Below are positions 62,016-63,854 of a stretch of 64,000 nucleotides of DNA, piece after piece (the first letter of the stretch is position 1; each line of letters opens with the position of its first letter). The notes beneath the pieces were generated by a model, which did not search any database, was not told the origin of the DNA, and saw only the letters and a program-made list of their open reading frames with translations. This DNA is from Candidatus Babeliales bacterium. Its GTDB lineage: Bacteria > Babelota > Babeliae > Babelales > Vermiphilaceae. Where the stretch lies: assembly GCA_035944115.1 (NCBI GenBank), contig DASZBJ010000034.1, forward strand, positions 1 to 64,000, read 5' to 3'. Position numbers and translations under genes: made by a program.

Positions 62016-62450
62016 CTATTCTTTGGCAGAAGCATTACGACCTTCTAAAATATATGACTCACCTCGCTTAAAAATAATAATTTCTTTTGGTCGCAATTCC
62101 ATAAGAGCTTGCCACTGATCAAGAATTGAAAGTAATTCTTTTTGGGACATTTTTATATGTGGCTCAAAACCTCTATCAAATTGGCAAGCAATAAGAATAT
62201 CATCTCCATCCTTTTCCATCATGGTATAATTACTTCCTGTTTCTATATCATTAGGATCATTTATAAAATCCTTAAACGTCTCTGCTCCATTCCCCCCTCC
62301 AACATCATCAGTAAGAAATCCAGCCAAAATCCAAAAATCATCTTTGCTTGGTCCATTACTAAGATAAATACGATCATGTAATTTAAATTGTGCGATTTTC
62401 ATTCTTTTATCCAACATACATATAACGATACCTTTGCAACGGCAAATCAA
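62016..62450 (-). CDS. Small cytoplasmic protein, tandem paralog 2 (candidate immunity protein)
   Basis: About 90% nucleotide identity to 62459..62860, including identical runs of 90 bp or more; no signal peptide. Confidence 0.5.
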   Translation of the reverse strand: MICRCKGIVICMLDKRMKIAQFKLHDRIYLSNGPSKDDFWILAGFLTDDVGGGNGAETFKDFINDPNDIETGSNYTMMEKDGDDILIACQFDRGFEPHIKMSQKELLSILDQWQALMELRPKEIIIFKRGESYILEGRNASAKE

Positions 62451-62458
62451 TGAGATAA

Positions 62459-62860
62459 TTATTCTTTGGCAGAACTATTGCGCCCTTCTAAAATATATGA
62501 CTCACCTCGCTTAAAAATAATAATTTCTTTTGGTCCCAATTTAACAAGCGCTTCCCACTGATCAAGAATTGAAAGTAATTCTTTTTGGGACATTTTTATA
62601 TGTGGCTCAAAATCTCTATCAAATTGGCAAGCAATGCGGACATCATCGCCTTCCTTTTCCATCATGGTATAATTACTGCCTGTTTCCGTCCAATTAGGAT
62701 CATTGATGAATTTTTTGTATGAAGGCGAAGGGCAAGATCCCACATCGTCTGTAAGAAATCCAGCCAAAATCCAAAAATCATCTTTGCTTGGTCCATTACT
62801 AAGATAAATACGATCATGTAATTTAAATTGTGCGATTTTCACTTGTAATTCCTTTATCAA
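62459..62860 (-). CDS. Small cytoplasmic protein, tandem paralog 1 (candidate immunity protein)
   Basis: Immediately (1 nt) downstream of the toxin-like gene; paralog of 62016..62450. Confidence 0.5.
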   Translation of the reverse strand: MIKELQVKIAQFKLHDRIYLSNGPSKDDFWILAGFLTDDVGSCPSPSYKKFINDPNWTETGSNYTMMEKEGDDVRIACQFDRDFEPHIKMSQKELLSILDQWEALVKLGPKEIIIFKRGESYILEGRNSSAKE

Positions 62861-62861
62861 T

Positions 62862-63854
62862 CTAAATAGGATATGAGGTTACTAACTCTCCTGTTGCTTC
62901 AAAAACTGTTCTAATTTCTATCCCTTCTCGTGTTTTTCCAACCCATACCCAACGGCTACCCTGCAGTTCTGGCAATTCTGTTGGATTTAATAGAGATTCT
63001 TGTATTTTTTTGAGTACTTTTTTGCGCGACCATGAAGCAGGGAAGAATGTTTTATCTGCTTTTACTTGTCCTAAAAAATGTAAATCTGCCTTCATAACAC
63101 CCGTTATTTTATCAATAACAGCATTATGTATCAAATGGCTCAGTTGGTTTTTCACGTTATGATGAAACCCTTGTGTTATATTCTTAATTATTCCCGATTT
63201 TTTATATTCCTGTATAATCTCAACACCAAAAATATGCTTCAATATTTCCGGTGTAATTTTAATATGTCTCAAACCAACAAGATTTGCATTTCTATTAATT
63301 TTAAATGCATCTTTAAATTCTACAAAAAGACCAACGATTTCCGGTTCATTATACATCAAATAATCGATTTTGCGGGCCAATTTATTTTTTGGAAGCTTTG
63401 CAGCTTTATCCCCAGCTTCAGCGATAGCAATTTCTATTGCTTTGATTGCTTCAGCTTCTTGCTTGAACGCTACTGCAGTTCCGGTTGCTTCTGCTGCCAC
63501 GATAATGCCAGGAGAACAGGGAACTGCAGGCATTATATTAGTTTGCTCAGCCAGTTTTATGGCAACCGCAAGTTCCTGTTGCGCCGTTTTATACATGGTA
63601 TGCGCAGCACTCAAGCATTTTTTAGTAAGCGATGTTTCTACGATAATTGCAGTTCCCTCTCGCGCAAGGGTCTTAATGGGTGTGTCTTGTATTTTATGTA
63701 TAAGATCGATTGATATTCGTTCTATATTGGTCACAACTTGATCAACACGTTCAAACCCTGCCTGCTTATCAACAATACACGCGATAGCAACATCACAAAT
63801 TTCATATAATACTTTACCCAAATGCCATCCTGCTTTTGCCACGCCAGAAACCAT
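62862..63854 (-). CDS. Cytoplasmic 330-aa protein with Ala-rich helical N-terminal half and C-terminal domain resembling bacterial EndoU-type (polymorphic-toxin) RNase domains
   Basis: C-terminal ..RHIKITPEILKHIFG..GFHHNVKN..GSRWVWVGKTREGIEIRTVFEATGELVTSYPI; the closing (T/S)xYP end and His/His/Lys pattern recall the EndoU_bacteria family. Complete ORF (in-frame stop upstream of the ATG at 63854). Confidence 0.45.
   Translation of the reverse strand: MVSGVAKAGWHLGKVLYEICDVAIACIVDKQAGFERVDQVVTNIERISIDLIHKIQDTPIKTLAREGTAIIVETSLTKKCLSAAHTMYKTAQQELAVAIKLAEQTNIMPAVPCSPGIIVAAEATGTAVAFKQEAEAIKAIEIAIAEAGDKAAKLPKNKLARKIDYLMYNEPEIVGLFVEFKDAFKINRNANLVGLRHIKITPEILKHIFGVEIIQEYKKSGIIKNITQGFHHNVKNQLSHLIHNAVIDKITGVMKADLHFLGQVKADKTFFPASWSRKKVLKKIQESLLNPTELPELQGSRWVWVGKTREGIEIRTVFEATGELVTSYPI

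Follow-up and report, generated by a model that had tools for sequence, protein, structure and literature searches.

EndoU-tipped polymorphic toxins with immunity genes downstream of them are well known. What defines a polymorphic toxin system is the combination of swappable tips with a conserved trafficking part, together with immunity genes downstream and the occurrence of truncated copies (PMC3482391). MafB MGI-1 NEM8013 has been shown experimentally to be an EndoU RNase (PMC4287609), and the EndoU toxin of PDB entry 5HKQ is a metal-independent anticodon nuclease with a His-His-Lys triad and an adjacent Thr (PMC9086364). According to a 2012 survey, intracellular bacteria are mostly devoid of immunity genes, with Odyssella as the exception (PMC3482391). 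Here we analysed a 64,000-nt stretch (the window) from a metagenome-assembled genome (MAG) of a Candidatus Babeliales bacterium, in which three tightly packed minus-strand open reading frames (ORFs) code for an EndoU-like protein of 330 amino acids (aa) and two small proteins of 133 and 144 aa (genes imm1 and imm2). Isolates of the Babeliales/Dependentiae are intracellular parasites of protists.

In our assessment, the three ORFs probably represent one of the loci of a multi-copy polymorphic toxin-immunity system in a Babeliales (Dependentiae) genome, at which the toxin gene was split by a mobile element and its tip disabled. A first-pass annotation of the DNA letters had read the three ORFs, all of which are present where it placed them, as a candidate toxin-immunity module. 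The three proteins are identical to the 'Candidatus Babeliales bacterium' MAG entries VGT41_04055, VGT41_04060 and VGT41_04065 (64,036-bp contig). In NCBI, the 330-aa product is called 'EndoU domain-containing protein', and both small products are 'hypothetical'. The EndoU call on the 330-aa ORF is thus not new, since the label already stands in the NCBI annotation. What the present analysis adds is an explanation of the gene as a split one, a new immunity family with a recombining patch, and a multi-locus system in one Babeliales genome.

Evidence for a split toxin gene

In the related locus L001, the gene upstream of the immunity homologue runs uninterrupted for more than 652 aa, and the whole 330-aa protein aligns with its C-terminal ~335 aa. 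At the DNA level, L001 and the window remain homologous for a further 45 nt upstream of the start codon ATG 63854, and the homology ends abruptly at 63900, past which the window is AT-rich with stops in all minus-strand frames. A matching 5' half is found in the same MAG as P0161 (VGT41_02910), a 470-aa protein on a 1.76-kb contig that consists of an apparent signal peptide and the body only and is the closest relative of the N-terminal half of the L001 protein (83% identity). P0161 ends with ...GAYN plus seven foreign residues, and the homology resumes in the window at N-VSYA. At the DNA level, the Logan contig L009, which carries the same gene as P0161, ends with ...GCA TAT AAT|AGACCTCTTCTGAAAC TCATTTAG, and the minus strand of the window reads ...TATG GTTTCAGAAGAGGTCT|AAT GTT TCG... 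at the break.

The 16-mers of the two junctions are exact reverse complements of each other and form perfect inverted repeats of 16 bp. AAT stands on either side of the insertion. Together these are the hallmark of a mobile element that has terminal inverted repeats (TIRs) and makes a 3-bp target-site duplication (TSD). When the foreign DNA and one AAT were removed in silico, a single frame of 807 codons without internal stop was obtained. This repaired frame aligns colinearly with L001 through the break (80% identity, 648 aa) and with two further proteins of the MAG, P0010 and P0159, over the full length (50% identity). The left junction is identical in two assemblies, namely in the MAG protein P0161 and in L009. 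Judging from these sequences, the 330-aa ORF is the 3' half of a toxin gene of ~807 codons with an apparent signal peptide, a gene apparently cut by an insertion sequence or a miniature inverted-repeat transposable element. The first-pass annotation had taken the 330-aa protein as whole and its export route as unexplained; the fragment reading replaces this, as the signal peptide and delivery domain would be missing because the insertion split the gene.

No second copy of the element was seen in the window or the retrieved loci, and none in viral contigs. Both contigs stop shortly inside the element (the window and nearly the whole contig end there), as would be expected if the element is repeated in the sample. 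On the plus strand, the end of the element at 63963-64000 reads ATGAAATATGAAAAATTAAAATCATCATCA and runs off the window, with a promoter-like site at 63963-63992; this stretch may be the start of an element-borne gene.

The course of events that we propose is as follows. An ancestral protein of ~807 aa would have begun with a Sec-type signal peptide, followed by a lineage-specific body of ~450 aa, a helical pre-toxin region of ~160 aa and, at the C-terminus, an RNase of the EndoU fold. Going by the family, intact members would be exported via Sec, and the EndoU tip would cleave RNA in the target cell by a metal-independent His-His-Lys mechanism. The small cytoplasmic proteins would bind and block the tip in the producer, as suggested by their conserved linkage and by a possible fold similarity to CdiI(STEC_O31). 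An element with 16-bp TIRs would then have inserted at codon 463/464 and duplicated AAT, leaving the 5' half as VGT41_02910 on its short contig and the 3' half as the 330-aa ORF. Both immunity genes would have stayed intact, with imm1 taking up a different ~90-nt specificity patch by recombination, and they would probably still protect against related EndoU tips from kin or from the genome's own two intact paralogous toxins. The 330-aa ORF itself is most likely a recently disabled, orphan-like toxin tip, because the signal peptide, the body and an obvious ribosome-binding site are missing.

Alternative explanations for the 330-aa ORF

The ORF could instead code for a complete and functional cytoplasmic protein, either as part of a toxin-antitoxin-like module or as an effector with an unrecognised export signal. 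We regard this as unlikely. The ORF starts at an internal ATG (63854; HEV2601450.1, VGT41_04065) where the orthologue in L001 has GTG (Val), and that an ATG stands at this site and opens an intact frame of 330 codons speaks for a stand-alone protein, as do short forms that start in the same helices elsewhere (302 aa in L004, beside an immunity gene, and 325 aa in P0017) and a ratio of nonsynonymous to synonymous rates (omega) of 0.31 against L001. But an intact frame is also expected after a recent insertion, and the full-length homology does not begin at the ATG; it extends 45 nt above it to the inverted-repeat/AAT junction, whose partner lies at the end of the 5' half in the MAG. In addition, no obvious Shine-Dalgarno sequence precedes ATG 63854, whereas the GTG start of imm1 at 62842 has AAGGA 7 nt upstream.

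A second explanation, which we find quite unlikely, is that the assembly produced the split artificially, or that only a minority allele has it, while most cells carry an intact toxin of ~807 aa. Both halves do lie at contig ends, the genome has at least four family paralogues that invite assembly breaks, and the Logan contig and the MAG may share source reads. Breaks caused by repeats, however, shorten contigs and add no foreign sequence to them, whereas here both contigs run into non-homologous DNA that opens with the same 16-mer, in opposite orientation, beside the duplicated AAT. The agreement of the P0161 and L009 assemblies on the left junction also argues against an artefact.

The ORF might also be a silent orphan C-terminal (CT) cassette that arose by duplication or recombination and was kept for tip switching, as known for cdiA-CT, rhs-CT and mafB-CT. 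Its ~175 conserved pre-toxin codons could serve as a recombination handle, it is accompanied by its own immunity genes, and such a layout is typical of orphan modules (PMC4287609, PMC3482391). Against this, the missing 5' half is present once in the MAG, is nearest to the 5' half of L001 and ends at the same codon, and the TIR and TSD point to insertion and not to duplication; we consider an orphan cassette very unlikely. That the protein is a housekeeping or cytoplasmic EndoU digesting imported host RNA, with unrelated small genes next to it, is barely credible: the Chromulinavorax genome paper places endoU among the cytoplasmic endonucleases for host biopolymer degradation (PMC6561590), but the full-length relatives have signal-peptide-like starts and exchange the EndoU tip for unrelated tips, and in divergent loci the small-gene family is without exception linked to EndoU tips and appears to be similar to an immunity protein already known for EndoU.

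A defence-system or phage origin of the locus was considered as well and rejected, as there were no supporting matches.

EndoU domain, pre-toxin helices and swapped tips

The Pfam family EndoU_bacteria (PF14436) matched residues 203-330 (62865-63248) with 49.6 bits against a gathering score of 25.3 (E 6.7e-13), covering profile positions 3-128 of 129. The AlphaFold2 model, built from 36 homologues, has a predicted local distance difference test score (pLDDT) above 90 across residues ~161-330. XendoU (probability 0.98) and calcium-activated EndoU took the top Foldseek ranks, with Nsp15 and CdiA-CT(STEC_O31) (PDB 5HKQ) among the further best structural matches. Alignments of 18-36 homologues show no or hardly any variation at H207 (in KHIFGVE), H231 (in GFHH) and K268-T269 (in DKTFFP); these residues are counted from Met1, and the homologue alignments and the toxin model start one residue later. 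This H/H/K/T pattern corresponds to the active-site pattern of 5HKQ. The protein ends with ...IEIRTVFEATGELVTSYPI, with TSYPI as the final residues. Because of the PF14436 score, the fold matches and the conserved H207, H231 and K268-T269, the 330-aa protein is predicted to carry a true EndoU RNase domain, so that both the EndoU-like C-terminal domain and the spaced His/His/Lys residues proposed from the letters hold up.

PDB sequence searches with the toxin alone and with the EndoU-domain profile gave chance matches only (prohibitin, hemerythrin), PHROGs gave a weak match to the EndoU tail only, and a word-index homology search returned only the 330-aa protein itself. There was no match in NCBIfam for the toxin or the small proteins, and none in PADLOC for the toxin, either small protein or P0010.

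The N-terminal half had been described as Ala-rich and helical, which is borne out by an Ala content of 17% in residues 1-160 versus 4% in the rest of the protein and by four long helices predicted by AlphaFold2 for residues 1-150 (pLDDT 60-87). No Pfam family matched this region. An exhaustive phmmer search brought up 282 relatives of the 330-aa protein, many of them 600-830 aa long, with the whole query aligned at their C-terminal end. The full-length members that we inspected begin with a signal-peptide-like sequence (MKFYSYFLIFFLSFTRCFG...), as judged by eye and hydropathy only, and the 330-aa ORF of the window has no signal peptide. In several relatives, the shared part takes in the body and query residues 1 to ~140, after which come unrelated tips of ~120-150 aa. 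At least four unrelated alternative tips were found, one common to P0019 and P0103, another to P0064 and P0073, and others in P0144 and P0147; they match no Pfam family even at E<=1 and are candidate new toxin domains. The comparison with relatives thus uncovered the cassette polymorphism that the first-pass annotation had proposed to look for, in the form of swapped C-terminal tips on a shared body. On this evidence the Ala-rich half appears to be the conserved pre-toxin region of the family and not a delivery domain, and the window locus appears to belong to a polymorphic toxin family with a shared body and swapped tips.

Several side observations concern the body and the tips. Two of the alternative tips read '...RGSTGRTEA..MTDPRW..HYVAQ..AVDDFKFK' and '...WTSHG.KHF...RVEMSA.TIHGHPIT'. 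Two tip-less members, P0160 (VGT41_05435) and P0013 (Logan), have an apparent signal peptide, body and pre-toxin helices and end straight after the helices. In P0159 and the reconstructed protein, the body has one or two moderately hydrophobic segments, GVLSFIYGCFSFGVDLIGLA and ALILIDCCWSFLDCSIGVA, at residues ~118-143 and ~437-455 (Kyte-Doolittle 1.6-1.8), which could be membrane-inserting.

Membership in two known families was tried and rejected. For CdiA, the full-length P0010 and P0016 match no Pfam family other than EndoU, with no two-partner secretion (TPS) domain and no filamentous haemagglutinin (FHA) repeats. For MafB, neither P0010 nor the other full-length members match DUF1020 (PF06255) at E<=0.01. 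A CdiB-like gene was absent among the scanned window neighbours.

Putative immunity genes

The longest-ORF starts of both small genes are probably wrong. Because of the homology between the two copies and the NCBI annotation, we place the start of imm1 at GTG 62842 and that of imm2 at ATG 62417 or 62402, the latter two giving 133 and 128 aa, respectively. With imm1 starting at GTG 62842, the gap between toxin and imm1 is therefore 19 nt, and not the single nucleotide read at first.

The small proteins have no match in Pfam, NCBIfam, PADLOC or PHROGs, and no PDB sequence was found even with a profile. At 8 clusters in 5.8 billion sequences, the family is a small one; it includes four further paralogues in the MAG beyond the two in the window. 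In every related locus recovered (the window, L001-L008 and two other loci of the MAG), an immunity-family ORF follows the EndoU ORF. The predicted fold of the small proteins appears to resemble that of CdiI(STEC_O31), which is the immunity protein paired with an EndoU toxin. Purifying selection acts on the genes, with an omega of 0.24 against L001. The linkage and the modelled fold together suggest that the small proteins are a new EndoU-linked immunity family. The toxin-then-immunity layout that was recognised at first sight is sustained because the linkage to EndoU tips is conserved, in at least five other loci, and because of the predicted fold, which appears to be CdiI(STEC_O31)-like.

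The DNA of the two copies is 90% identical and includes perfectly matching runs of 91, 58 and 52 bp, so that the initial estimate of about 90% identity with identical stretches of 90 bp or more stands. The differences are far from evenly spread, however: 51 of the 71 fall within alignment columns 91-180 (aa ~31-60), a hypervariable patch of ~90 nt. Comparison of imm1 with imm2 gives a rate of synonymous substitution (dS) of 0.125 in the sequence outside the patch and of ~2 (saturated) within it. Against L001, dS is ~0.4 for either copy, so the low dS between the two places their duplication, or a homogenisation, after the split from the L001 lineage. Within the patch, imm2 has 5 differences from the L001 immunity gene and imm1 has 52, which makes the imm1 patch unrelated. 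Because the synonymous saturation is confined to the patch, the imm1 patch would have been imported by recombination. Plain divergence by point mutation was rejected for this patch, as synonymous sites are saturated there and not elsewhere. The immunity pair thus appears to be a pair of recent tandem duplicates and a recombinant mosaic; the recent duplication had been recognised before, but the copies are not the simple duplicates they were taken for.

The patch overlaps the lowest-confidence loop and the next helix of the immunity model, and we infer that it sets toxin specificity. Since the patch of imm2 matches that of the L001 immunity gene, which lies beside the orthologous toxin, imm2 is likely the cognate immunity gene of the window toxin. 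The NCBI version of imm2 falls in the same 90% cluster as the L001 immunity protein P0003.

Table 1. Positions of the ORFs, domains, residues and insertion marks of the toxin-immunity locus in the window
Feature	Position	Strand	Remarks
330-aa ORF, longest-ORF span	62862..63854	minus	
133-aa ORF, longest-ORF span	62459..62860	minus	
144-aa ORF, longest-ORF span	62016..62450	minus	
imm1	62459..62842	minus	VGT41_04060, HEV2601449.1; 127 aa, GTG start
imm2	62016..62417	minus	VGT41_04055, HEV2601448.1; 133 aa as annotated; homologous Met at 62402
Hypervariable patch, imm1	~62666-62752	minus	~90 nt
Hypervariable patch, imm2	~62223-62312	minus	~90 nt
Putative 3' toxin fragment	62862..63899	minus	345 codons and stop
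Predicted pre-toxin helical region	63375..63854	minus	residues 1-160; motifs W.LGKVLYEICD, LTKKCL
Predicted EndoU-fold RNase toxin domain	62865..63374	minus	residues 161-330
Candidate catalytic residue H207	63234-63236	minus	
Candidate catalytic residue H231	63162-63164	minus	
Candidate catalytic residues K268-T269	63048-63053	minus	
AAT, putative target-site duplication	63897..63899	minus	codon Asn463 of the ancestral gene; at both insertion flanks
16-bp terminal inverted repeat AGACCTCTTCTGAAAC	63900-63915	plus	part of the right end of the element, 63900..64000
Left junction			...GCATATAAT|AGACCTCTTCTGAAAC
Right junction			GTTTCAGAAGAGGTCT|AATGTTTCG
Uninterrupted (repaired) sequence over the break			...GCATATAAT-GTTTCGTATGCG...

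Related loci and neighbouring genes

The orthologous toxin of L001 is 83% identical to that of the window over the EndoU domain and 77% over the 330 aa, and its immunity protein is 87% identical to imm2. In L002 and L003, the toxin-domain identity is 62% and the immunity identity 65%. L004 has a 302-aa EndoU protein (32% identity) followed after 3 nt by a 123-aa immunity homologue (hhalign probability 99.4, E 8e-22) and, directly after this full immunity gene, by a second, partial immunity ORF of 67 aa (L004:6761-6961; profile positions 68-120); tandem copies or fragments therefore recur in the immunity family. In L005 and L006-L008 an EndoU ORF is likewise followed by an immunity-family ORF. 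Across the loci, tip and immunity identities fall together, from 83%/87% in L001 to ~62%/57-70% in the paralogous loci and ~41%/35% in L004.

The three loci L006 (L006:457-5040), L007 and L008, which are JGI Ga0180433 contigs of a more distant lineage, show a further arrangement. There, a 1152-aa EndoU-tipped toxin is followed by an ORF of ~245 aa with an immunity-like N-terminal and an EndoU-like C-terminal part in one frame, and a separate immunity ORF comes next. The arrangement is suggestive of an array of orphan tips that includes an immunity-toxin fusion.

With a profile of full-length members, four more family proteins were found in the same MAG. P0010 (812 aa, EndoU tip) has the accession directly before those of three tandem immunity paralogues, and P0159 (816 aa, EndoU tip) stands directly before another immunity paralogue (at least one). 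P0160 (626 aa) lacks a tip and otherwise shows the body and pre-toxin helices, and P0161 is the 5' half described above. A single Babeliales genome thus has at least three loci of such toxins, along with seven genes of the immunity family. Profile scans of the genome contigs with the immunity alignment and with the full-length toxin alignment found no relatives, and a metagenome scan with the immunity alignment gave no matches.

The module had been placed directly upstream, on the same strand, of a glycosyltransferase island, and this holds. A 285-aa protein (61156-62013, minus), which matches no Pfam family and has a hydrophobic segment at the N-terminus, begins 2 nt past the imm2 stop, and its gene overlaps the next one, a GT2 glycosyltransferase (60374-61174, minus), by 19 nt. 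The same-strand order downstream, with almost no spacing, is imm2, the 285-aa protein and GT2 glycosyltransferases, with SecA further on, so that operon-like packing runs on past the immunity genes into the glycosyltransferase island. Scans of 61800-64000 for promoters and terminators gave results at or below chance, and no dedicated secretion system was seen.

Two genes farther along the minus strand are recorded here as side observations. A 272-aa protein (57404-58222) has a sub-threshold match (E 6.8e-6, 26 bits versus a cutoff of 29.5) to SLATT_5, a SMODS/SLOG-associated effector domain with two transmembrane segments (2TM). A 152-aa protein (59795-60253), a member of the 'secreted-paralog island', has a signal-peptide-like N-terminus, a coiled coil and weak sub-threshold Pfam matches.

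Implications and comparison with known systems

Beyond the single locus, it is possible, and we put it forward only tentatively, that Babeliales/Dependentiae harbour undescribed lineage-specific polymorphic toxins exported via Sec, with a new ~450-aa body, a helical pre-toxin region and swappable tips, together with multi-copy Whirly-like immunity arrays that have a shuffled patch. If so, this would mean warfare of bacterium against bacterium among conspecifics, inside or between host cells. The literature that we searched contained no paper linking Dependentiae to polymorphic toxins. If the systems are active, they would serve competition between related Dependentiae cells, and they offer uncharacterised tips and a trafficking domain for study. 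The split gene is in addition a caution against taking ORFs at the contig ends of MAGs as whole proteins.

Among the known systems, the Tox-EndoU/PF14436 toxins of Zhang, Aravind et al. share with the window protein an above-threshold, full-profile domain, its C-terminal position and immunity genes next to it (PMC3482391). The immunity families in that survey include SUKH and SuFu (PMC3482391), whereas the window immunity family matches no Pfam model. In CdiA-CT/CdiI STEC_O31 (PDB 5HKQ), an EndoU anticodon nuclease of clade III is paired with its immunity protein; the window proteins have no sequence-level similarity to either chain, and there is no TPS/FHA-repeat architecture and no CdiB. For the small proteins, a further comparison is with immunity proteins of Whirly/PC4-like (sPC4L) fold such as CdiI (4NTQ_B) and Neisseria NMB0503 (4Q7O).

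The closest known system in architecture is MafB/MafI of pathogenic Neisseria. MafB has a Sec signal peptide, which the present family appears to share; the likeness further includes an N-terminal domain restricted to the lineage, variable tips among which is EndoU, and an immunity gene directly downstream (PMC4287609), and it extends to several loci per genome and to 5'-truncated CT cassettes with or without start codons (PMC4287609). Unlike MafB, the body of the present family is not DUF1020, a conserved helical pre-toxin region of ~160 aa precedes the tip, and the host belongs to the Dependentiae. The immunity family, which has no Pfam match, also sets the locus apart from MafB/MafI, as does a truncation that appears to have come from the insertion of a mobile element.

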